Below, piece by piece: positions 5,224-63,946 of a stretch of 64,000 bases of DNA. The position numbers and the translations under genes are program-made. This DNA comes from Escherichia phage KIT06. The notes under the pieces are model-generated. The model saw only the letters and a list, made by a program, of their open reading frames with translations, did no database searches and was not told the DNA's origin. Where the stretch lies: the sequence record OQ349392.1; one strand, 5' to 3'. The stretch's first letter is position 1. Every line of letters starts with the position of its first letter.

Positions 5224-5253
5224 GTTTACTTTTCCTCTTGACTGTGGTATAAT
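5224..5253 (+). promoter_or_regulatory. T4 early promoter upstream of regB
   Basis: GTTTAC 5224-5229, 18-nt spacer, TGGTATAAT with TATAAT at 5248-5253; SD GAGGAG then ATG 5281. Confidence 0.6.
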
Positions 5254-5280
5254 TTTTCTATCAGTTAAGAGGAGAATAAC

Positions 5281-5742
5281 ATGACTATCAACACAGAAGT
5301 TTTTATCCGTCGAAATAAGCTCCGTCGTCACTTTGAGTCGGAGTTTCGTCAAATTAACAATGAGATTCGTGAGGCATCAAAAGCAGCAGGGGTCTCATCG
5401 TTTCATCTAAAATATTCTCAGCATCTTCTTGATCGTGCAATTCAACGGGAGATTGATGAGACATATGTTTTTGAATTATTCCATAAAATAAAAGACCATG
5501 TTTTAGAAGTTAATGAATTCCTGAATATGCCTCCACGCCCTGACATTGACGAGGATTTTATTGATGGGATTGAATATCGTCCTGGGCGTTTAGAAATCAC
5601 AGATGGAAATCTTTGGCTTGGATTTACAGTTTGTAAACCTAATGCGAAGTTCAAAGACCCGTCGCTTCAATGCAGGATGGCAATTATCAACAGTCGTCGT
5701 TTACCGGGAAAGGCTTCTAAGGCAGTAATTAAAACTCAATGA
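5281..5742 (+). CDS. regB: RegB site-specific endoribonuclease
   Basis: 153 aa, same length as T4 RegB; sequence recognised (MTINTEVFIRRNKLRR...); own early promoter. Confidence 0.9.
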   Translation: MTINTEVFIRRNKLRRHFESEFRQINNEIREASKAAGVSSFHLKYSQHLLDRAIQREIDETYVFELFHKIKDHVLEVNEFLNMPPRPDIDEDFIDGIEYRPGRLEITDGNLWLGFTVCKPNAKFKDPSLQCRMAIINSRRLPGKASKAVIKTQ

Positions 5743-6295: not shown

Positions 6296-6629
6296 AATTT
6301 TGGTTTTATGTGTAGGATTAATTTCATTTTCTGCGTTAGCAGATATATCATATTCTGAAGTTAGAGAGTATGTAAACCGTACTGCCGCGGATTATTGTGG
6401 GAAAAATAAAGCATGCCAAGCTGAATTTGCGCAGAAATTAATATATGCATATAAAGACGGAGAAAGAGATAAATCAAGTAGATACAAGAACGATACTTTA
6501 TTAAAACGATATGCTAAAAAGTGGAATACCTTAGAATGTTCAGTTGCGGAGGAGAAAGATAAAGCCGCTTGTCATTCAATGGTTGACCGTTTAGTAGATT
6601 CTTATAATCGAGGATTGAGTACTAGATGA
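6288..6629 (+). CDS. small secreted protein (vs position)
   Basis: 113 aa, signal peptide MTKILVLCVGLISFSALA, several Cys; position corresponds to T4 vs but identity not verified. Confidence 0.45.
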   Translation: MTKILVLCVGLISFSALADISYSEVREYVNRTAADYCGKNKACQAEFAQKLIYAYKDGERDKSSRYKNDTLLKRYAKKWNTLECSVAEEKDKAACHSMVDRLVDSYNRGLSTR

Positions 6630-11869: not shown

Positions 11870-12879
11870 TGAAAACAGTAATGAAAAGCTATTTTGGTAG
11901 TCATCTTTATGGAACTTCTACTCCAGAATCTGATGTAGATTTTAAAGAAATCTTTGTTCCTCCTGCTCGTGATATTCTTATCGGAAATGTTAAAGAGCAT
12001 ATGAGTAAAAACACTAACAACACATCATCTAAAAACACTAAAGATGATATTGACCATGAACTATACAGTCTTAAGTATTTCTTTAAATTAGCAGCAGATG
12101 GTGAAACTGTAGCATTGGATATGCTCCACACTCCACCTGAACTGGTAGTTAAATCTGATTTGCCTGATGTATGGAAGTTTATTCAAGACAATCGTTCTCG
12201 TTTTTATACAACTAACATGAAATCTTATTTAGGATATGTCCGCAAGCAAGCTTCTAAATATGGTGTCAAGGGTTCTCGTTTGGCCGCATTGCGTGATGTA
12301 TTGAAAGTAGTTAATCAAATCCCTGAGCAATGGGTTGATTACCAAGAAGACGGTTCCATTAAGCAGCGTCGAACTAAAGTTGAAGATATTAAGCATCGTC
12401 TTCCAGAGAACGAATTCTGTGAATGGGTATTCCATAATCATGAGAAAACAGGCCCACAAACGTTCTACACTGTGTTGGGCCGTAAATATCAGACAACGCT
12501 TTCTCTTATCGAGCTTAAGCAGTCACTGAACAAATTAGATGCTGAATATGGCGAGCGCGCTCGTAAGGCTGAAGCTAATGAAGGTATTGACTGGAAAGCT
12601 CTGAGTCATGCTTGTCGTGGTGGACTCCAACTATTGGAAATTTACAAAACTGGTGACTTAGTCTATCCACTTCAAGACGCTCCTTTTATTCTCGACGTGA
12701 AGTTGGGTAAACATCCATTTAAAACTGTTCAAGAGTTTTTGGAAGATGTGGTCGATCAAGTAGAAGCAGCATCCATTGAAGCTTCTAAGAACGGTATGCA
12801 GCAAAAAGTAGATATGAGTTTCTGGGATGACTTCCTTGAGAGGGTTTATCTTGAAAACCACCGAAGTTATTATAAATGA
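11866..12879 (+). CDS. predicted nucleotidyltransferase (pol-beta superfamily fold)
   Basis: 337 aa; N-terminal motif YFGSHLYGTSTPESDVDF fits the GS...DxD nucleotidyltransferase signature; ATGA overlap with upstream gene. Confidence 0.55.
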   Translation: MMKTVMKSYFGSHLYGTSTPESDVDFKEIFVPPARDILIGNVKEHMSKNTNNTSSKNTKDDIDHELYSLKYFFKLAADGETVALDMLHTPPELVVKSDLPDVWKFIQDNRSRFYTTNMKSYLGYVRKQASKYGVKGSRLAALRDVLKVVNQIPEQWVDYQEDGSIKQRRTKVEDIKHRLPENEFCEWVFHNHEKTGPQTFYTVLGRKYQTTLSLIELKQSLNKLDAEYGERARKAEANEGIDWKALSHACRGGLQLLEIYKTGDLVYPLQDAPFILDVKLGKHPFKTVQEFLEDVVDQVEAASIEASKNGMQQKVDMSFWDDFLERVYLENHRSYYK

Positions 12880-12880
12880 T

Positions 12881-12906
12881 AGGGAGCCTTCGGGCTCCCT
12901 TTTTTG
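12881..12906 (+). terminator. rho-independent terminator (UUCG tetraloop)
   Basis: AGGGAGCC TTCG GGCTCCCT followed by TTTTTT. Confidence 0.8.
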
Positions 12907-12927
12907 TTTAAATGACGTCACAAAGTT

Positions 12928-12957
12928 GTTTACAAGCATAAAGCTTTGTGGTACTAT
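12928..12957 (+). promoter_or_regulatory. T4 early promoter with conserved leader cassette
   Basis: GTTTAC 12928-12933, TGGTACTAT -10 at 12952-12957, then leader ACAACTATCAACTGATG...GGAATAAAATG. Confidence 0.6.
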
Positions 12958-12991
12958 ACAACTATCAACTGATGTGGATTTGGGGAATAAA

Positions 12992-13404: not shown

Positions 13405-13434
13405 GTTTACAGTAGGGTAGTAGTGTGATACTAT
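13405..13434 (+). promoter_or_regulatory. T4 early promoter embedded in inverted repeat
   Basis: GTTTAC 13405-13410, -10 GATACTAT; flanked by AGGGTA (13413-13418) and TACCCT (13435-13440). Confidence 0.5.
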
Positions 13435-13470
13435 TACCCTATCAAAACAAATGTGAAATTGGAGAATAAA

Positions 13471-14845: not shown

Positions 14846-14875
14846 GTTTACAAGACTGTTCCTCTGTGGTACTAT
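14846..14875 (+). promoter_or_regulatory. T4 early promoter with conserved leader cassette
   Basis: GTTTAC 14846-14851, TGGTACTAT -10 at 14870-14875; 9-bp inverted repeat CTGTTCCTC/GAGGAACAG at 14856-14864 and 14892-14900. Confidence 0.6.
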
Positions 14876-14903
14876 ACAACTATCAACTACGGAGGAACAG
14901 AAA

Positions 14904-15431
14904 ATGAACGCTAAAGATATTTTCAACTTGGTAAATTACAATGATGGTAAATTTAAATCTGAAGCACAGAGTAAGTTCTTTAATGACATCTCAATCGGAG
15001 GTGAAATCACTGTTGATGGAGGACAAATTTACAAATCCCGTTGGAATTGGATCGTTATTATTGATGAGATTGGTATTGTAGAAATTTACAAGAATACGAA
15101 TAAAAATCGTACATTACACTGGTCTCGTGATACTAACGAACAGTACAAAAAGGATAAAGCATCTAAATTATCTCGTGTAACTCAAGAAGATATTGAGTTC
15201 ATCAAGAAAGATATTTTAATGTATGATAACTTAATTGCTGAAGAGCAAGCTGTTATTGATAAATTTGATGAGATTAAAGCTTCTCGTGAAATTCCTGATT
15301 TTATGAAAGAATCAGTAAATGAACGATACACTCTCATTTCAGAGCGTATTGAAACTTACAAAAAGCAAAGAGCTGAACGCCAAAATACTCTTCGGAAGTT
15401 TGAAGAACGGTTAAAGACGGTACTCGCATAA
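14904..15431 (+). CDS. hypothetical protein
   Basis: 175-aa ORF with SD GGAGGAA, charged coiled-coil-like C-terminus. Confidence 0.5.
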   Translation: MNAKDIFNLVNYNDGKFKSEAQSKFFNDISIGGEITVDGGQIYKSRWNWIVIIDEIGIVEIYKNTNKNRTLHWSRDTNEQYKKDKASKLSRVTQEDIEFIKKDILMYDNLIAEEQAVIDKFDEIKASREIPDFMKESVNERYTLISERIETYKKQRAERQNTLRKFEERLKTVLA

Positions 15432-24302: not shown

Positions 24303-25125
24303 GTATTATATAATTTATAAAATAACAAATATAATTAATTCAAAGGAATATATCGGTGCGCATAGCACCGATAACATAAATGACGGTTATATGGGGTCAG
24401 GAACATTGATTCGTGCCGCTTTATTAAAATATGGTAGAAAAAATTTTAATAAAGAAATTTTACATGTTTTTGATAATGAAAAACAAATGTATGATAAAGA
24501 AGCTGAACTCGTAACCGAAGAGTATTGTCTAAAAGAAAATACATATAATATTAAACCTGGTGGAAAAGGTGGAACTGCCTATGAACAGACACTTGAACAT
24601 CGCCGCAAAAATAGTTTAGCAAATAAAGGTAAAAAGAGAACAGAAGAAACTAAAATAGCTATTTCACGTGCTTTAAAGAAATATAAACGTACGCCAGAGC
24701 ATCAAGCAAATTTAAATAAAGCCGTAAGCATAGCTATGAAGCGAAAAGATGTTAGAAGTAAATTAGCTGGAGAGCGGTCTGAGAAAGATAAATTATCTAT
24801 ATCAAACGGTGTTAAAAAATATTACAATTCTTTGAGTGAAGAAGAACGCGAACTTCATCGCAAGCGAATTATTGAAGGTAAAAAGAATTCTCCCATGTCA
24901 TTGGAATCTAGACAAAAGCTTTCAAAAGCTTTAAAAGGACTTCAAGTTGGTTCAAAAAATCCAATGTATGGAAAAATTTCTCCAACTAGCAAAACCGTTT
25001 CAGTTGACGGTATTAAATATGATTCAATTAAAAAGTGCTCAAATGCCATAAAAGTTTCTAGACATCTTATACTAAAACGCTGTAATTCTACTGATGAAGC
25101 TTGGAAAAATTGGATATTATTATGA
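24295..25125 (+). CDS. GIY-YIG homing endonuclease (Seg/Mob-like), free-standing between nrdD and nrdG
   Basis: 276 aa; GIY-YIG motifs YIIYKITN...EYIGAHS...GSG...NTYNIKPGG; repeated NUMOD3-like DNA-binding repeats (KNSLANKGKKRTEETK, SRQKLSKALKG). Confidence 0.85.
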   Translation: MHRYYIIYKITNIINSKEYIGAHSTDNINDGYMGSGTLIRAALLKYGRKNFNKEILHVFDNEKQMYDKEAELVTEEYCLKENTYNIKPGGKGGTAYEQTLEHRRKNSLANKGKKRTEETKIAISRALKKYKRTPEHQANLNKAVSIAMKRKDVRSKLAGERSEKDKLSISNGVKKYYNSLSEEERELHRKRIIEGKKNSPMSLESRQKLSKALKGLQVGSKNPMYGKISPTSKTVSVDGIKYDSIKKCSNAIKVSRHLILKRCNSTDEAWKNWILL

Positions 25126-40899: not shown

Positions 40900-40929
40900 G
40901 TTTACATCCCGGTTCCTTTATGGTACTAT
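40900..40929 (+). promoter_or_regulatory. T4 early promoter with conserved leader cassette
   Basis: GTTTAC 40900-40905, TGGTACTAT -10 at 40924-40929, leader ACAACTATCAACTGATG...GGAGAATGAAATG. Confidence 0.6.
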
Positions 40930-56062: not shown

Positions 56063-57378
56063 CATTTGATGATTTGACAGAAGGCCAGAAAAATGCCTTT
56101 AACATCGTTATGAGGGCTATTAAAGAAAAGAAACATCATGTAACTATTAATGGACCTGCTGGTACTGGTAAGACTACTCTTACTAAGTTCATCATTGAAG
56201 CCTTAATATCTACAGGCGAAACTGGCATTATTTTAGCAGCTCCTACTCATGCAGCTAAAAAGATTCTTTCAAAACTGTCAGGGAAAGAAGCGAGTACTAT
56301 TCACAGTATTCTTAAAATTAACCCAGTAACATACGAAGAAAACGTTCTTTTTGAGCAAAAAGAAGTACCGGATTTGGCTAAATGCAGAGTACTAATCTGC
56401 GACGAAGTGTCAATGTATGATAGAAAGCTATTTAAAATTCTGCTTTCAACTATTCCACCTTGGTGTACTATAATTGGAATAGGCGATAATAAGCAAATTA
56501 GACCTGTTGACCCAGGAGAAAATACTGCTTATATCAGTCCATTCTTTACGCACAAAGACTTTTATCAGTGTGAACTCACTGAAGTTAAACGCAGTAATGC
56601 TCCTATTATTGATGTAGCTACTGATGTTCGTAACGGTAAGTGGATTTATGATAAAATTGTTGACGGACATGGAGTACGTGGATTTACTGGTGATACCGCT
56701 TTACGCGATTTTATGGTAAATTATTTTTCAATCGTCAAATCACTAGATGATTTGTTTGAAAATCGCGTAATGGCATTTACGAATAAATCTGTTGATAAGT
56801 TAAATAGCATTATTCGCAAAAAGATTTTTGAAACCGATAAAGATTTTATCGTTGGTGAAATTATTGTAATGCAGGAACCATTAATTAAAACATATAAAAT
56901 TGATGGAAAGCCTGTGTCAGAAATTATTTTTAATAACGGGCAATTAGTTCGTATTATAGAAGCAGAATATACATCAACATTTGTTAAAGCTCGTGGTGTT
57001 CCTGGAGAATATCTAATTCGTCATTGGGATTTAACAGTAGAAACTTACGGCGATGATGAATATTATCGTGAAAAGATTAAAATAATTTCATCTGATGAAG
57101 AGCTGTATAAGTTTAACTTATTTTTAGGTAAAACTGCAGAAACTTACAAAAATTGGAATAAAGGCGGAAAGGCTCCATGGAGTGATTTTTGGGATGCTAA
57201 ATCACAGTTTAGTAAAGTGAAAGCACTTCCTGCATCAACATTCCACAAAGCTCAGGGCATGTCTGTAGATCGTGCTTTCATCTATACACCTTGTATTCAT
57301 TATGCAGATGCTGAACTAGCTCAGCAGCTTCTTTATGTTGGTGTAACACGTGGTCGTTATGATGTGTTTTATGTATGA
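56059..57378 (+). CDS. dda: DNA helicase Dda (SF1B)
   Basis: 439 aa as in T4 Dda; Walker A GPAGTGKTT, Walker B ICDEVSM. Confidence 0.95.
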   Translation: MTFDDLTEGQKNAFNIVMRAIKEKKHHVTINGPAGTGKTTLTKFIIEALISTGETGIILAAPTHAAKKILSKLSGKEASTIHSILKINPVTYEENVLFEQKEVPDLAKCRVLICDEVSMYDRKLFKILLSTIPPWCTIIGIGDNKQIRPVDPGENTAYISPFFTHKDFYQCELTEVKRSNAPIIDVATDVRNGKWIYDKIVDGHGVRGFTGDTALRDFMVNYFSIVKSLDDLFENRVMAFTNKSVDKLNSIIRKKIFETDKDFIVGEIIVMQEPLIKTYKIDGKPVSEIIFNNGQLVRIIEAEYTSTFVKARGVPGEYLIRHWDLTVETYGDDEYYREKIKIISSDEELYKFNLFLGKTAETYKNWNKGGKAPWSDFWDAKSQFSKVKALPASTFHKAQGMSVDRAFIYTPCIHYADAELAQQLLYVGVTRGRYDVFYV

Positions 57379-57399: not shown

Positions 57400-57645
57400 G
57401 TGGAAATAACTAAAGACCAGTTTTATCTGCTTCAAGATAAAGTAAGCGAAATTTATGAAATAGCTTATAGTAAAAATCGTAAAAACGTGAAAATTGAATC
57501 AGGCAAGTTAATGCTTCAATTGGAAGAAATTGAACGAGATTTGATTGCGTTAGAATTCTTTTGTGGTGAAGTGAAAACTGTTACAATCAGTGATTACGTT
57601 TTAGGTGAAATTAGCCATCTTTATAAGGCGGTTATTAATGATTGA
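57400..57645 (+). CDS. hypothetical protein (dexA.2 position), probable GTG start
   Basis: ORF track 57385..57645 begins TTG; GTG 57400 has GAGG 9 nt upstream; paralog of next gene. Confidence 0.4.
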   Translation: MEITKDQFYLLQDKVSEIYEIAYSKNRKNVKIESGKLMLQLEEIERDLIALEFFCGEVKTVTISDYVLGEISHLYKAVIND

Positions 57646-57880
57646 ATTAAGTTTGCATCAGTTTAAATCTCTTATGACAAATGTTAAAGCTGTCATTCAA
57701 GAAAATTCAGGACCTGATAATGTTACTATTCGCGAAAAAGCTTTAAAGATAGTATACAGTCTTGAAGAGATACAAAAAGATATTGAATCTATGGCAAAAT
57801 TTATTGATGAGCCCATTAATAAAGTTTATATCCAGGATTATACTGTAGGTCAAATTCGCGATTTAGCGAGGAAAATTTAA
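57638..57880 (+). CDS. hypothetical protein (dexA.1 position)
   Basis: 80 aa from ATG 57638; shares LEEI..D...Y.QDY.VGQI pattern with upstream gene. Confidence 0.45.
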   Translation: MIELSLHQFKSLMTNVKAVIQENSGPDNVTIREKALKIVYSLEEIQKDIESMAKFIDEPINKVYIQDYTVGQIRDLARKI

Positions 57881-58563
57881 TGTTTGATTTTATTATAGAT
57901 TTTGAAACAATGGGAAGCGGTGAAAAAGCAGCTGTTATTGACTTAGCTGTTATTGCCTTTGACCCTAACCCAGAAGTAGTTGAATCCTTTGATGAATTAG
58001 TTTCACGCGGCATTAAAATCAAGTTTGATTTAAAAAGCCAAAAAGGACATCGTCTTTTTACTAAAAGCACTATCGAATGGTGGAAAAATCAATCTCCTGA
58101 AGCTCGAAAAAATATTGCACCATCAGATGAAGATGTAAGCACTATCGATGGTATTGCAAAATTTAATGATTACATCAATGCACATAACATCGATCCTTGG
58201 AAATCTCAAGGCTGGTGCCGTGGAATGTCATTTGATTTTCCAATTTTAGTCGATCTCATTCGCGATATTCAGCGTCTCAACGGCGTTTCTGAGAATGAAC
58301 TTGACACATTTAAGTTAGAACCATGTAAATTCTGGAATCAACGTGATATTCGTACCAGAATTGAAGCACTTCTGCTTGTTCGTGATATGACCACGTGTCC
58401 TCTTCCAAAGGGAACTTTAGATGGATTCGTTGCACATGATTCTATTCATGACTGTGCGAAAGACATCTTGATGATGAAGTATGCTTTGCGATATGCTATG
58501 GGTCTTGAAGACGCTCCGTCAGAGGAAGAGTGCGATCCTCTATCTCTTCCAACAAAACGATAA
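57880..58563 (+). CDS. dexA: exonuclease A (DEDDh 3'-5' exonuclease)
   Basis: 227 aa as in T4 DexA; MFDFIIDFETMG exo motif I. Confidence 0.92.
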   Translation: MFDFIIDFETMGSGEKAAVIDLAVIAFDPNPEVVESFDELVSRGIKIKFDLKSQKGHRLFTKSTIEWWKNQSPEARKNIAPSDEDVSTIDGIAKFNDYINAHNIDPWKSQGWCRGMSFDFPILVDLIRDIQRLNGVSENELDTFKLEPCKFWNQRDIRTRIEALLLVRDMTTCPLPKGTLDGFVAHDSIHDCAKDILMMKYALRYAMGLEDAPSEEECDPLSLPTKR

Positions 58564-58569
58564 AAAGTT

Positions 58570-58599
58570 GTTTACTTCCTCGGTTAGTTGTGGTATTAT
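58570..58599 (+). promoter_or_regulatory. T4 early promoter
   Basis: GTTTAC 58570-58575, TGGTATTAT with -10 at 58594-58599. Confidence 0.6.
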
Positions 58600-58626
58600 A
58601 ACACCATAGCTACTGAGGATAATAAA

Positions 58627-59127
58627 ATGAAAATTTATCGTGTTGAATCATCGTTTAGTATTCTTGATTATGAAGATGCTATAACAATACGTCGAAATCT
58701 TTGTGTTCAAATAACGCCGTACAGGAGTATAATAGATTCATGGAGCGAAGAGTGGTTATTACACGTAGGTTATGACAGACCTAATTTTATGCATCATAGC
58801 GATAATAATAAAAGAATTCCTTTACCACACGAAGATAAACTATTAGTTAAAAACACTAATATAGTAATTAATACTAAGTTCAAGAAAGATTATGTTGGAG
58901 TAGAATATCATATTCCAGGATGGTTTATAGCTCTTTATCATTTTGCTTTCGCTAGTGAATATGATATGATGAGATGGTTCACACGAGAAGAGCGGGAAGA
59001 ATTATCTTCTAAAGGATTTTATCTCGCTGTATACGAAGTTCCTGAAGATGAAGTTATCATTGGCGGGCACCAAGTAATGTTCCGCAAATCGCATGCTGAA
59101 CTCATAGATTTTATTGAAATGAGATAA
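58627..59127 (+). CDS. hypothetical protein (motB position)
   Basis: 166 aa from ATG 58627 with SD GAGGATAA; size/position similar to T4 MotB, not verified. Confidence 0.45.
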   Translation: MKIYRVESSFSILDYEDAITIRRNLCVQITPYRSIIDSWSEEWLLHVGYDRPNFMHHSDNNKRIPLPHEDKLLVKNTNIVINTKFKKDYVGVEYHIPGWFIALYHFAFASEYDMMRWFTREEREELSSKGFYLAVYEVPEDEVIIGGHQVMFRKSHAELIDFIEMR

Positions 59128-59129
59128 TT

Positions 59130-59672
59130 ATGAAATTTAATTATAATCCTGAATACATACCAAATCCGGTAGCTAAACTGATTGATTTTGATGTTGTAAG
59201 CACTTATGTATGCCCTGTTAAACCACTGGAAATTAAGGAACCTACTATGACTACCGCTATTGAAATCGGCAAAACCTACAAACTGGTTGAACCTGAAATT
59301 AAAACCAATGCCTTGATTTCCGGCTATAAAACTTTGACTGATGTTTTTGGCGAAGGCGAATTTACCGTTGAAGACTTTGAAAAAAGTAAATGGTTTACTA
59401 AATCTTATATTGTCCACGGTCGTCGTTTAGACAATAACAAAATAGAGAAAATCCTGGTTTATGAAGCAGAGTTCATCCTGTTCCAAGAAGTTGAAGAACA
59501 AGACCCTACCGACCTTCTAACTCGTGCAGTAGCTATCAAGACTCCATTTATTTCGGTCTGTGGTTGGGTAACAGACCAATGGATTGAAGATGGCGTTGAA
59601 CTTCTGAACGTTGTTCATGCAGGTGATTTTAGCGTAGTACCTCGTAGTGCAGTGGTAGCTATTTTGAATTAA
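59130..59672 (+). CDS. hypothetical protein, paralog of 59749..60240
   Basis: 180 aa; C-terminus VTDQWIEDGVELLNVVHAGDFSVVP shared with downstream gene. Confidence 0.5.
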   Translation: MKFNYNPEYIPNPVAKLIDFDVVSTYVCPVKPLEIKEPTMTTAIEIGKTYKLVEPEIKTNALISGYKTLTDVFGEGEFTVEDFEKSKWFTKSYIVHGRRLDNNKIEKILVYEAEFILFQEVEEQDPTDLLTRAVAIKTPFISVCGWVTDQWIEDGVELLNVVHAGDFSVVPRSAVVAILN

Positions 59673-59674
59673 TA

Positions 59675-59704
59675 GTTTACAAACTCTTGGGACCAGAGTA
59701 TAAT
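59675..59704 (+). promoter_or_regulatory. T4 early promoter with flanking inverted repeat
   Basis: GTTTAC 59675-59680, GAGTATAAT with TATAAT 59699-59704; inverted repeat GGGACCA (59689-59695) / TGGTCCC (59704-59710). Confidence 0.6.
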
Positions 59705-59748
59705 GGTCCCGCGGAGTATAAAATCTTTTTAACAAGTGAGAGATAACT

Positions 59749-60240
59749 ATGATTATTAATATTGGTGAAATTGCTCGTGTATCTGATAAATCCCGTTCTA
59801 AAGCAGCAGGAAAATTGGTCGAAATTGTAAGCATTCAGCTTAAACATGGTGTTAAAGATGAAGATTCTGAAGTAAAAGTGCGTATCATTCCTAAAGATGG
59901 AAAGTCTAAACCTCAGTTTGGCTATGTTCGTGCGAAATTTCTTGAATCTGCGTTTTTGAAAGCTGTTCCTGCTAAAGGAATTGAAACAATTGATACTTCG
60001 CATGTAGGTGTAGACTTTAAGTGGAAACTCGGTCAGGCTATTAAGTTCGTTGCTCCTTGTGAATTCGAATTTACCGAAGGTGAGGAAGGGGTTGTTCACC
60101 GTACCCGCGCTATGTGTGCATACATTACCGATCAATGGGTAGAAGATGGCGTTAAGTTGTACAACGCAGTATTTTTAGGAACATACAAAGTCATTCCCGA
60201 AAGTTGGATTAAACACTATAGCAAAGCCCGCTATGCATAA
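59749..60240 (+). CDS. hypothetical protein, paralog of 59130..59672
   Basis: 163 aa; SD GAGAGA; C-terminus ITDQWVEDGVKLYNAVFLGTYKVIP. Confidence 0.5.
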   Translation: MIINIGEIARVSDKSRSKAAGKLVEIVSIQLKHGVKDEDSEVKVRIIPKDGKSKPQFGYVRAKFLESAFLKAVPAKGIETIDTSHVGVDFKWKLGQAIKFVAPCEFEFTEGEEGVVHRTRAMCAYITDQWVEDGVKLYNAVFLGTYKVIPESWIKHYSKARYA

Positions 60241-60270
60241 AATTTAAATTTTTTTCATAAAACTATATAC

Positions 60271-60313
60271 ATCAGTAGTTGATTATGGTACTATATCAAT
60301 ATCAACTACTGAT
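60271..60313 (+). repeat. 13-bp perfect inverted repeat around a -10-like element (promoter stem-loop)
   Basis: ATCAGTAGTTGAT (60271-60283) and ATCAACTACTGAT (60301-60313) flank TATGGTACTATATCAAT; no GTTTAC -35 upstream. Confidence 0.6.
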
Positions 60314-60337
60314 ACAGAAAACAACTTGGAGAATAAA

Positions 60338-60607
60338 ATGGAAAACTTAATTATCATCGAACAATCTTTCAACGATTATGGTATGGCTTACGGTTATCGT
60401 GCGATAATGGAAGATTCTCGTGGATGTGTTATCGATATTGCTGAATGTAAAGATTTACTGCAGCTTTTGAAGACTGTTCGCAAAAATTGGGATTGTGAAA
60501 ACATTAAAGTTCGTGTTGTAACGGAAGAAAAAACTGTTTTTCATGATGTAAAATTTGCCAAAGGTGCTGCTACTCTTCTGAAACGCATCGCTCCACTGTT
60601 CAATTAA
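60338..60607 (+). CDS. hypothetical protein
   Basis: 89 aa from ATG 60338 with leader GGAGAATAAAATG shared with other cassettes. Confidence 0.5.
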   Translation: MENLIIIEQSFNDYGMAYGYRAIMEDSRGCVIDIAECKDLLQLLKTVRKNWDCENIKVRVVTEEKTVFHDVKFAKGAATLLKRIAPLFN

Positions 60608-60620
60608 TGAGGAAATTGTA

Positions 60621-60836
60621 ATGAAACGTAAAATTGTTCAGAACTGCACTAATGACGAATTTGAAGATGTATTATTCGATCCAGATTTGGTAGTAGTTCA
60701 AAAGGAACACACCATTAAGTTTACTCACTTGACTTCGGTTTATGTTTATGAAAAGGTTGGTGATAAACAGCCAATTTACGGTGTATTTCGTGAAATTACT
60801 GAAGATGGCACAACTTACTGGAAGGAAATTTATTAA
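60621..60836 (+). CDS. hypothetical protein
   Basis: 71-aa ORF, SD GAGGAAA. Confidence 0.5.
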
Positions 60837-61240
60837 TGGCTATTAAATTTGAAGTTAATAAATGGTATCAATTTAAAAATAAACAAGCTCAAGAAAATTT
60901 TATTAAAGACCATACTGATAACGGAATCTATGCACGACGTTTAGGTATGGAACCTTTTAAAATTTTAGATGCTGATTATCTTGGGCGTCCTACTAAAATT
61001 GTGACATCCACAGGTGTACTCAAACGTTGTGCCGGCGCTGATATCCTTGACGAAAACTTTATCTGGCTCTCTACTAACGAAGCTGGGTTCTTTGATGAAG
61101 TGGAAAATCCATACCAAGCTTCTGAAGAGCAAGAACAAATAGAAGATTTCACAGAATTCCCTGTCATGAAAGTTACTATTGAAAATAATGAACAGGCATG
61201 GTCTTTGTATCAGATGTTGAAAGCACACTTTAAGGAATAA
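60836..61240 (+). CDS. hypothetical protein
   Basis: 134-aa ORF, TAATGG overlap. Confidence 0.5.
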
Positions 61241-61242
61241 TT

Positions 61243-61419
61243 ATGCCAATGTATGATTATAAATGCCAATCCGAAGATTGTGGGCATGAATATGAAAAAA
61301 TTAAAAAGATTTCTGAACGAGAAAATGATGTTTGCCCTAAATGTCATCGTTTGTCTACTCGTCGGCCTTCTGCTCCTAAGCATGTGAATGGCGGATTTTA
61401 CGACTTACTTAAAGGGTGA
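61243..61419 (+). CDS. small zinc-ribbon protein (FmdB-like)
   Basis: 58 aa below track threshold; MPMYDYKCQSEDCGHEYE...CPKCH two CxxC pairs; SD AAGGAA. Confidence 0.45.
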   Translation: MPMYDYKCQSEDCGHEYEKIKKISERENDVCPKCHRLSTRRPSAPKHVNGGFYDLLKG

Positions 61420-61421
61420 TT

Positions 61422-61793
61422 ATGTTTAAAATCGGTAAGAAATATCGTGTTCGCGAAGGTGAAGAAAAGAAATATCTACTTTCTTCTATTTATAGGAATG
61501 GTTCTATTAATGCCGTAATATCTACAAGTGAATTTATCGTTGAAGATATGAAAGGTAATAATGTTACAATGATTAGTACAGCATCTGGAAATGATGGAAA
61601 AATTCTTCATAGTTTTCAGGGTAATGTTCTAATTTATGATGAAGAATTTGACTTCTTCGAAGAAGTTACAGAAGATTTTGATTTTGAATGCACTATCACT
61701 ATGAAATCTGGTGACCCTCTTTCTTTTACAGTTAAAGATGAAAGAAGTCGCTTGAGAATTATTAGTCTCCTTCAAGCCATTAAATTTAAGTGA
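61422..61793 (+). CDS. hypothetical protein
   Basis: 123 aa from ATG 61422 (track start 61416 is GTG). Confidence 0.5.
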   Translation: MFKIGKKYRVREGEEKKYLLSSIYRNGSINAVISTSEFIVEDMKGNNVTMISTASGNDGKILHSFQGNVLIYDEEFDFFEEVTEDFDFECTITMKSGDPLSFTVKDERSRLRIISLLQAIKFK

Positions 61794-62059
61794 AAATTAT
61801 GAAATATGTTAATCGTTCTATCGCAGCATTAGTATTAGCAGTATCTTTAGTAGGATGTACTGATGCTGATAATGCAACCAAAGTTTTGTCTTCAAGTGGT
61901 TTTACTAATATTGAAATCACTGGATATAATTGGTTCGGTTGCTCTGAAAATGATTTCCAGCATACTGGATTTCGTGCTATTGGACCTACCGGGCAGAAAG
62001 TAGAAGGAACAGTATGTTCTGGTCTATTCTTCAAGGATTCGACTATCCGTTTTAAATAA
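61790..62059 (+). CDS. lipoprotein
   Basis: 89 aa; signal peptide with lipobox LVGC. Confidence 0.55.
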   Translation: MKIMKYVNRSIAALVLAVSLVGCTDADNATKVLSSSGFTNIEITGYNWFGCSENDFQHTGFRAIGPTGQKVEGTVCSGLFFKDSTIRFK

Positions 62060-62083
62060 AAGGCCTTCGGGCCTTTAGCTTTA
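62060..62083 (+). terminator. rho-independent terminator (UUCG tetraloop)
   Basis: AGGCC TTCG GGCCT followed by TTAGCTTTAT. Confidence 0.65.
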
Positions 62084-62128
62084 TGATTACCGGAGTATAA
62101 TATTCCCGAAACCAAACGAGGATAAGTG

Positions 62129-63946
62129 ATGATTAAGAATGAAATTAAAATTCTGAGCGATATTGAACATATCAAAAAGCGTAGCGGCATGTATATTGGC
62201 TCTTCTGCTAATGAAATGCATGAGCGCTTTCTGTTTGGTAAATGGGAAAGTGTTCAGTATGTACCTGGTCTTGTTAAGCTTATTGATGAAATTATCGATA
62301 ACTCAGTAGATGAAGGTATTCGTACTAAGTTTAAATTCGCAAATAAAATTAATGTTACTATCAAAAACAATCAAGTAACAGTTGAAGATAACGGTCGTGG
62401 TATTCCACAAGCGATGGTTAAAACACCTACTGGTGAAGAAATTCCTGGTCCTGTTGCTGCCTGGACTATTCCAAAAGCAGGTGGTAACTTTGGTGATGAT
62501 AAAGAACGCGTCACTGGCGGTATGAACGGTGTTGGTTCTAGTTTAACTAACATTTTTTCTGTGATGTTTGTCGGTGAAACTGGCGATGGTCAAAATAATA
62601 TTGTAGTTCGTTGTTCAAATGGCATGGAAAATAAATCATGGGAAACTATTCCTGGAAAATGGAAAGGAACACGTGTTACTTTCATTCCTGATTTTATGTC
62701 ATTTGAAACTAATGAGCTATCTCAAGTTTATCTTGACATTACACTAGATCGTCTCCAGACACTTGCAGTAGTTTATCCTGATATTCAATTTACCTTTAAT
62801 GGTAAAAAGGTTCAGGGTAATTTTAAGAAATATGCACGCCAATATGATGAACATGCTATCGTTCAAGAACAAGAAAATTGTTCTATTGCGGTTGGTCGTT
62901 CACCTGATGGTTTTCGTCAATTAACATACGTCAATAACATTCATACTAAGAATGGTGGCCATCATATTGACTGTGTTATGGATGATATTTGTGAAGACCT
63001 TATTCCACAAATCAAACGTAAGTTCAAAATTGATGTAACTAAAGCACGCGTTAAAGAATGTTTGACTATCGTTATGTTTGTTCGTGATATGAAAAACATG
63101 CGATTTGATTCTCAGACTAAAGAGCGTTTGACTTCTCCATTTGGTGAAATTCGTAGTCATATTCAGCTTGATGCTAAAAAGATTTCACGTGCTATTTTAA
63201 ATAATGAAGCAATTTTAATGCCAATTATTGAAGCTGCCTTGGCTCGTAAATTGGCGGCAGAAAAAGCAGCAGAAACTAAAGCAGCTAAAAAGGCTTCTAA
63301 AGCTAAGGTTCATAAACATATTAAAGCGAATCTTTGCGGTAAAGATGCTGACACTACTCTTTTCTTGACTGAGGGTGATTCTGCTATTGGATATCTTATT
63401 GATGTTCGTGATAAAGAACTTCATGGTGGTTATCCATTGCGTGGTAAAGTTCTTAACAGTTGGGGTATGTCATATGCTGATATGCTTAAAAACAAAGAAC
63501 TGTTTGATATTTGCGCAATCACTGGATTAGTTCTTGGTGAAAAAGCCGAAAACTTGAATTATCATAATATTGCTATTATGACCGATGCTGACCATGATGG
63601 TCTAGGAAGCATTTATCCTTCTTTGCTCGGATTTTTTAGTAATTGGCCAGAACTGTTTGAACAAGGAAGAATTCGCTTTGTTAAAACTCCTGTAATCATC
63701 GCTCAGGTCGGTAAAAAACAAGAATGGTTTTATACAGTCGCTGAATATGAGAGTGCTAAAGATGCTCTACCTAAACATAGCATCCGTTATATTAAGGGAC
63801 TTGGCTCTTTGGAAAAATCTGAATATCGTGAGATGATTCAAAATCCAGTATATGATGTTGTTAAACTTCCTGAGAACTGGAAAGAGCTTTTTGAAATGCT
63901 CATGGGAGATAATGCTGACCTTCGCAAAGAATGGATGAGCCAGTAG
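62129..63946 (+). CDS. 39: DNA topoisomerase II large (ATPase) subunit gp39, unsplit form
   Basis: 605 aa from ATG 62129; GyrB-like ATPase motifs (EHIKKRSGMYIGS, DNGRGIP) and TOPRIM region in one ORF; no gene-60 split. Confidence 0.93.
   Translation: MIKNEIKILSDIEHIKKRSGMYIGSSANEMHERFLFGKWESVQYVPGLVKLIDEIIDNSVDEGIRTKFKFANKINVTIKNNQVTVEDNGRGIPQAMVKTPTGEEIPGPVAAWTIPKAGGNFGDDKERVTGGMNGVGSSLTNIFSVMFVGETGDGQNNIVVRCSNGMENKSWETIPGKWKGTRVTFIPDFMSFETNELSQVYLDITLDRLQTLAVVYPDIQFTFNGKKVQGNFKKYARQYDEHAIVQEQENCSIAVGRSPDGFRQLTYVNNIHTKNGGHHIDCVMDDICEDLIPQIKRKFKIDVTKARVKECLTIVMFVRDMKNMRFDSQTKERLTSPFGEIRSHIQLDAKKISRAILNNEAILMPIIEAALARKLAAEKAAETKAAKKASKAKVHKHIKANLCGKDADTTLFLTEGDSAIGYLIDVRDKELHGGYPLRGKVLNSWGMSYADMLKNKELFDICAITGLVLGEKAENLNYHNIAIMTDADHDGLGSIYPSLLGFFSNWPELFEQGRIRFVKTPVIIAQVGKKQEWFYTVAEYESAKDALPKHSIRYIKGLGSLEKSEYREMIQNPVYDVVKLPENWKELFEMLMGDNADLRKEWMSQ

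Follow-up and report, generated by a model that had tools for sequence, protein, structure and literature searches.

Between motB and the cef transcription unit of Escherichia phage KIT06, in the 64,000-nucleotide (nt) stretch of sequence record OQ349392.1 that was analysed (hereafter the window), lies a hairpin-forming palindrome of 43 nt that is centred on the -10 element of a predicted early promoter. With a probability of roughly 0.55, we regard this site as a composite of the promoter-early stem-loop (PeSL) type, that is, a hairpin-forming palindrome in which a T4-type sigma-70 early promoter is embedded and whose hairpin would appear only in read-through RNA. The sequence-level features of PeSLs are all in place, namely an A/T-rich tract (TAAAATTTAAATTTTTTTCATAAAAC at 60238-60263), a putative early promoter whose -35 is a one-mismatch variant of the consensus, a stem-loop, a Shine-Dalgarno sequence with its ATG, and an intergenic location near variable genes; they lend support to the resemblance to PeSLs that an earlier reading of the bare letters (hereafter the original prediction) had proposed.

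The palindrome consists of two 13-base-pair (bp) arms in perfect complementarity around a 17-nt centre (Table 1), exactly in the sequence and at the coordinates originally given for a perfect inverted repeat around a -10-like element. In a repeat search it grows inward to 20-nt arms with 85% complementarity and a loop of 3 nt, the inner part being a 5-bp helix (60286-60290 with 60294-60298, including one G.T pair) closed by the loop CTA. Folding of the RNA, which had been proposed as a check, yields a stable stem-loop of -20.2 kcal/mol (z-score -5.5, with none of 200 shuffles equally stable) that is kept in the centroid structure of a 221-nt RNA context, and the corresponding single-stranded DNA hairpin reaches -11.5 kcal/mol (z -4.95). 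Could this be chance complementarity in A/T-rich DNA? The repeat is the sole perfect one of at least 13 bp with a loop of up to 60 nt in the window, and at least one of that kind turns up in 11% of the window's dinucleotide shuffles (mean 0.16), so that the repeat by itself is only mildly improbable. What makes a chance origin very unlikely, to the point that we give it next to no weight, is that the local z-scores are -5.5 to -6.3, that the repeat has its centre on the -10 of a promoter, that it is invariant in hundreds of genomes and that it belongs to a recurrent pattern. The local fold of the palindrome is far outside chance, and the finding is real and non-random. Two other perfect 12-bp inverted repeats with loops of up to 60 nt, and none further, were found in the window: CTTTATTAAAAT at 24419-24454 (loop of 12 nt) and TTACGCGATTTT at 56701-56770 (loop of 46 nt); 12-mer inverted-repeat matches amount to four, two of them from the palindrome described here, and shuffles predict 0.59. 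An Rfam search of 59600-60900 gave no match at E <=1. The 17-nt loop, used as a query against IMG/VR, retrieved near-identical T4-like copies, one unrelated phage group in which the -10 context is the same, and other chance matches; the unrelated metagenomic viral contigs carry exact TATGGTACTATATCAAT ahead of an ATG in promoter-like surroundings, where it is not flanked by an inverted repeat.

The predicted promoter is threaded through this structure such that the 5' arm fills its spacer, at about -31 to -19. Its -35-like hexamer, TATACA, matches TTGACA at 4/6 and TTTACW at 5/6 positions and is a single mismatch away from the T4-type TTTACA; the original prediction was correct in finding no GTTTAC here, but this weak -35 nonetheless stands at the right 17-bp distance. 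The A/T-rich tract aligns with those of Pe.8, of PmotA and of the window cassette at 40929. Judged from the spacing, transcription would start 7 nt past the -10 hexamer, at A60301, which is the first base of the 3' arm, and the latter ends at 60313, 15 nt ahead of the Shine-Dalgarno sequence. Two other functions were considered for the site and rejected: a T4 middle (MotA-dependent) promoter, none being listed between P39 (5349) and Pdex.2 (10058), with the site at T4 position ~6.6 kb, and the replication origin oriA, which maps near soc. In the laboratory T4 mutant T4_7t1 (OL964745), the TATATA of the -35 region has lost 2 bp, TA (window 60264-60265), which keeps TATACA at 17 bp and shifts the A/T tract 2 bp closer.

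Sequence comparison makes the site a paralogue of the early-promoter/leader cassette of T4, and alignment bore out its likeness to the cassettes at 12950, 14869 and 40921, to which it had been compared from the outset. It has an identical stretch of 42 nt, from ATCAACTACTGAT through ATGGA, in common with the Pe.8 cassette of RB3 and T2L, and shares the opening 19 nt of the leader with T4 PmotA, whose -35 and -10 are annotated; PmotA and Pe.8 both have an ordinary GTTTAC -35 and unrelated spacers. Set against five paralogous cassettes, the target departs from them in three places and no others, namely the -35, the spacer and the discriminator; its 3' arm is the family's conserved leader, and its 5' arm is unique to the target. 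The spacer differs from that of the Pe.8 paralogue by 11 contiguous bases between near-identical flanks, the discriminator has gone from the family's CAACT to TCAAT, and both changes raise self-complementarity. The palindrome probably goes back to an ordinary cassette whose spacer was replaced by a complementary copy of the cassette's leader, for which one templated strand-switch event would be the most economical origin. The 42-nt identity with Pe.8 would, in addition, be a possible substrate for ectopic recombination. The promoter at 13434 and the one that precedes cef in Dhakavirus QL01 have a hairpin-forming spacer and -10 in common, AGGGTAGTAGTGTGATACTATTACCCT, at window 13405-13445 and at QL01 stretch positions 1435-1475, that is, at different loci and in different genera, which suggests that whole cassettes may move or convert between sites.

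Is the hairpin then simply a scar of its own making? It may be that a templated replication error of the strand-switch, quasi-palindrome-correcting kind copied the complement of the leader into the spacer, and that the resulting palindrome, devoid of function, has persisted by descent because it does no harm to the promoter. The 11 contiguous changed bases between near-identical flanks do point to one event over stepwise substitution, the relationship among Tequatroviruses is close and the promoter would constrain much of the block regardless, and neither a U-tract nor a masked ribosome-binding site (RBS) is there for the sequence to assign a function. The pattern of conservation, however, does not sit easily with a neutral relic. 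Over 60258-60320 (63 nt), at least 428 of the 518 matching phage records are >=99% identical, and the arms, on whose conservation in related phages the original prediction had staked itself, are identical in T4, in PST and in at least 428 phage records. In an alignment of 15 relatives, one natural variant occurs in the 58-nt block 60256-60313, compared with 7 variable sites among the 36 flanking non-coding positions (Fisher p 0.005; 0.018 without the loop positions that the search had fixed). The spacer, normally free in sequence, stays invariant in at least 428 records while adjoining non-coding bases vary. The lone natural arm variant, an A-to-G change at 60274 in vB_SsoM_113, still pairs as G.U, the discriminator has also shifted toward the extra inner pairs, and -10 hairpins occur with unrelated arms at the same locus in 8 of 11 phages of other genera and at 6 of 13 promoters of the window (see below). 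We therefore consider a functionless by-product unlikely, though far from negligible.

The recurrence within the window emerged from a set of 13 early promoters, each with a downstream Shine-Dalgarno sequence and ATG, that were folded from -36 to +30. Six of them reach z <=-3.7, whereas 9% of random 66-mers fall below -2 (Fisher p 0.0016), and the upstream part of a promoter pairs better with its own leader than with the leaders of other promoters (permutation p 0.0018). At three of these sister promoters, with -10 elements ending at 5253, 14875 and 58599, the 3' arm covers the Shine-Dalgarno sequence, and opening the RBS costs an extra 10.7, 14.8 and 5.6 kcal/mol, respectively, in read-through as compared with promoter-initiated RNA. 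At the first (5224-5283), the RegB endoribonuclease gene (ATG 5281, phrog_1323) has its early promoter inside a hairpin of -22.4 kcal/mol (z -5.0) whose 3' arm lies over the Shine-Dalgarno sequence AAGAGGAG. The second (14846-14906) precedes a gene for a 175-aa protein of unassigned function (phrog_2274), and its spacer, CTGTTCCTCTG, pairs with the leader and Shine-Dalgarno sequence CGGAGGAACAG (-25.5 kcal/mol, z -6.3). The third (58570-58629), the motB.2 early promoter, sits in a hairpin of -23.7 kcal/mol (z -5.6) by which its Shine-Dalgarno sequence, GAGGA, is covered. Going by map position, this motB.2 promoter may be the much-studied P8.1 of T4. The sense-strand stability bias is significant for four sister hairpins. 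Around the -10 of the motB promoter, at 59683-59717, there is also an inverted repeat, TTGGGACC / GGTCCCGCGGAG (-19.7 kcal/mol, z -3.7), which leaves the motB RBS uncovered.

A hairpin over the -10 recurs upstream of cef, too, in 8 of 11 phages sampled from other genera, with differing arm sequences and z-scores from -2.6 to -4.9: QL01 (Dhakavirus, z -3.0), Kosakonia phage 305 (Kanagawavirus, -4.3), X20 (Winklervirus, -4.2), KM16 (Moonvirus, -3.7), VR7 (Gaprivervirus, -3.9), kv_tblp2 (a Klebsiella phage whose record gives no genus, -4.9), EnA02 (Karamvirus, -2.6) and IT22 (Roskildevirus, -2.8). In the other three, ATK48 (Mosigvirus), JD18 (Jiaodavirus) and Roth19, it is weak or absent, JD18 and Roth19 having the same sequence at this site. 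IT22 has an additional canonical terminator upstream, and in VR7, where the hairpin was found, no clear promoter could be identified. At the orthologous site, the -35 reads TATACA in QL01 and TGTACA in ATK48. Taken together, the differing arms across genera and the sense-strand bias of the four sister hairpins favour action at the level of RNA over action at the level of DNA.

How might such a composite work? The promoter, made up of the A/T tract, TATACA, the 17-bp spacer, TGn and TACTAT, would serve the 89-aa open reading frame (ORF), cef and goF, and a start at about A60301 would make the 3' arm the first 13 nt of the transcript. Since transcripts initiated there would hold the 3' arm alone, they should stay unstructured, and RNA folded from A60301 indeed shows no structure (z -0.4). 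The 5' arm lies upstream of the +1, so that the hairpin can form only in RNA that reads through from motB. Transcripts of motB, from its own strong early promoter (TTTACA, 17-bp spacer, TATAAT, with the -10 ending at 59704), would run into the palindrome, and the read-through RNA, having both arms, would fold into a stem of 13 + 5 bp at about -20 kcal/mol. Because the hairpin is confined to read-through RNA, is not followed by a U-tract and leaves the RBS unmasked, its effect would have to be on attenuation, RNA processing or stability; most likely, it would act at the motB/cef boundary as an attenuator, as a processing site or as a structure that stabilises the 3' end of motB RNA.

Several points weigh against this reading. 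A simple scan for the sigma-70 consensus did not list the site, as only 8 of the 12 hexamer positions match, and promoter activity at A60301 is predicted from sequence; a differential RNA sequencing (dRNA-seq) dataset exists for T4 (GSE255091; bioRxiv 10.1101/2024.04.04.588121). There is almost no variation among Tequatroviruses, which precludes a covariation test, and the conservation may be due in part to recent common descent and to constraint by the promoter itself. The hairpins of the other genera are out of base-pair register with the target, so that they speak of recurrence and not of homology. Opening the RBS takes 3.7 kcal/mol in read-through and 3.1 kcal/mol in promoter-initiated RNA, and with a difference of 0.6 kcal/mol the best-documented role of T4 promoter hairpins does not apply here; translational gating by the target hairpin was rejected, the opening energy being essentially equal in both transcripts. 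The tail after the stem, ACAGAAAACAAC, has no U-tract, which makes classical intrinsic termination unlikely. Finally, the sense strand of the target is more stable than the antisense strand by 2.2 kcal/mol (-2.2), a difference that 43% of random windows reach as well, and with a strand difference that lies within background, action as RNA cannot be separated from action as DNA at the target.

Two of these points bear directly on other explanations of the hairpin. The same stretch, to the base, is annotated as a terminator in OL960581 (SA20RB) on the strength of a WebGeSTer prediction, and a stable stem 31 nt past the motB stop codon is indeed where a rho-independent terminator of motB might be sought. 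The 12 nt that follow the stem, however, contain not a single U, a terminator scan of the + strand from 57500 to 62500 found no terminator-like site, here or elsewhere in that interval, the stem is A/U-rich, and a true example from the family, at 12876-12905 (GGGAGCC TTCG GGCTCCC, a G/C stem, then T6), looks quite different. We thus hold termination of motB by this hairpin to be distinctly improbable; the intrinsic terminator was rejected as a candidate and the WebGeSTer annotation remains unsupported. The canonical terminator at 12876-12905 stands immediately upstream of an early promoter whose GTTTAC is at 12929-12934 and whose TACTAT is at 12952-12957, the whole unit spanning 12876-12960.

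The palindrome could also act as DNA, either as an operator for a dimeric protein of the phage or the host or as a supercoil-driven cruciform, which would occlude the -10 and close the promoter. It is, after all, a perfect palindrome centred on the -10, its single-stranded DNA hairpin is stable (see above), it lacks the sense-strand bias that would point to RNA, and the mechanism that ends T4 early transcription has been stated to be unknown (PMC2988021). By contrast, half-sites of 13 bp that are 30 bp apart, centre to centre, would be unusual for an operator, the 17-nt imperfect centre disfavours extrusion of a cruciform by what is established of that process, and several of the sister hairpins in the window are strongly sense-biased with G.U pairs, as expected of RNA. 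The orthologous arms, moreover, are so different across genera that no recognition sequence is conserved. A switch of this kind is therefore improbable. The broader idea that promoter-centred inverted repeats acting as DNA, through a dimeric early protein or a cruciform, take part in the shut-off of T4-type early transcription minutes post-infection is speculative, and we give it little credence.

How does the proposed promoter/stem-loop composite compare with what has been described? In published PeSLs, the stem-loop sits mostly in the interval from the -35 to the -10 or overlaps the latter (Arbiol et al. 2010, PMC2839356), as it does here, and -10-overlapping stem-loops are among the commonest subclasses in RB49 and phi1 (PMC2839356). 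The target resembles PeSLs further in that its cassette is repeated in the genome, with 42 nt equal to Pe.8, beside variably present genes. It departs from them in having an A/T-rich stem in place of polyG/polyC, a degenerate -35, a 3' arm inside the predicted transcript (+1 to +13) and, next to it, a deletion in T4 that is not bounded by the cassette. One PeSL stem-loop cut the expression of a downstream lacZ as strongly as rrnB T1 did (PMC2839356). PeSLs are further characterised by early activity of the promoter during infection, by attenuation or termination of transcription from upstream at the stem-loop, and by mini-circles that arise when cassettes recombine with one another. The stem-loops of T4 and PST have been placed just upstream of the promoter and not around the -10 (Comeau et al. 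2014, PMC4122927), unlike that of the target, which surrounds the -10, and it is the unit at 12876-12960 that has the terminator-then-promoter form described for them; the GenBank record of PST has no PeSL features annotated. In the T4 genes e, soc, 49 and I-TevI, hairpins in which a promoter is embedded sequester the RBS (reviewed in PMC3014915). There, too, it is the long RNAs initiated upstream that fold, promoter-proximal RNAs being without the 5' arm, but those promoters are late ones and the 3' arm lies over the Shine-Dalgarno sequence or AUG, whereas the target is of the early type and its arm falls short of it. The sister promoters at 5253, 14875 and 58599 follow the same logic as these T4 genes, but as early promoters. 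With intrinsic terminators, the target has in common a stable stem-loop soon after a stop codon and differs from them by the missing U-tract, the A/U-rich stem and the promoter within the stem.

Inverted repeats on a promoter core have precedents of another sort as well. A synthetic palindromic E. coli promoter is said to have been described by Horwitz and Loeb in 1988, and the virion-RNAP promoters of phage N4 are small DNA hairpins recognised by the phage RNA polymerase. Like these cruciform or hairpin promoters, the target has an inverted repeat on its promoter core, where DNA structure could gate initiation; in contrast to those of N4, its architecture is that of an ordinary sigma-70 promoter. 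The contribution made here is incremental, in that the sequence was made public decades ago and the PeSL class received its name in 2010. What is added is the exclusion of translational gating and classical termination for this hairpin, the identity of its 3' arm with the family's conserved leader, and the recurrence of promoter-centred hairpins at this locus in several genera. If the proposed composite is correct, the motB/cef boundary of T4 would make a clean natural test case for the function of PeSL stem-loops, and the -10 hairpins found across genera together with the RBS-hiding sister promoters suggest a general design rule of T4-type early units, so far described in outline only.

Table 1. 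Coordinates of the palindrome, of the predicted promoter and leader, and of the neighbouring genes in the window
Feature	Position	Strand	Remark
motB, 163 aa	59749..60240	+	ORF; PHROG MotB-like transcriptional regulator, E 1e-76
A/T-rich tract after motB stop, UP-element position	60241..60265	+	left edge of conserved cassette
-35-like TATACA	60266..60271	+	exactly 17 bp upstream of TACTAT
5' arm ATCAGTAGTTGAT	60271-60283	+	perfect complement of 3' arm
Palindrome centre TATGGTACTATATCAAT, 17 nt	60284-60300	+	extended -10, -10 hexamer, discriminator
TGG, putative extended -10	60286-60288	+	directly precedes TACTAT
TACTAT, putative -10 hexamer	60289-60294	+	fits T4/PST consensus TAYWAT; aligns with annotated PmotA -10
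ATCAAT, discriminator	60295-60300	+	follows -10 hexamer
3' arm ATCAACTACTGAT	60301-60313	+	perfect complement of 5' arm
Leader ACAGAAAACAACTTGGAGAATAAA, unstructured	60314..60337	+	contains Shine-Dalgarno
Leader GGAGAATAAAATG	60329-60341	+	match to conserved cassette
Shine-Dalgarno GGAG	60329-60332	+	ATG at 60338
89-aa ORF, function unassigned (phrog_3720)	60338..60607	+	first gene served by predicted promoter
cef, 71 aa	60621..60836	+	next gene, same transcription unit as 89-aa ORF

The window belongs to a Tequatrovirus and is 98.8% identical to phage IME339 across the stretch; the order of genes on the + strand is dexA, motB.2, motB.1, motB, 89-aa ORF, cef, goF, 39.2, 39.1 and gene 39. An identical palindrome lies between motB and cef in T4 (AF158101, ~6582-6624, minus strand) and in phage PST, and among relatives the cassette is flanked on both sides by variable gene content. 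The original prediction had proposed that rearrangements bounded by such cassettes be sought in T4-like genomes, and on this point the outcome was divided. In RB10, whose motB is divergent, an extra ORF of 139 aa (RB10 stretch positions 1078-1500) separates motB from the cassette, and homology to the window restarts at 60234, the cassette's left edge; behind the inserted ORF, a short repeat of the end of motB, TGCATAAAG, is left over and thus places the right breakpoint of the insertion at that edge. The deletion of the 89-aa ORF in T4 and PST, by contrast, is not bounded by the cassette. This ORF is internally deleted in T4, PST, ACG-C40, ESh28 and SA20RB by the joining of two AAAA microhomologies that lie within it, so that in T4 and PST cef comes directly after the promoter with only a short ORF remnant in between, which in T4 amounts to 11 codons. 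The corresponding region is at T4 stretch positions 1984-2070 and PST stretch positions 1283-1360, and in PST the Shine-Dalgarno sequence of the remnant has decayed from GGAG to GAAG.

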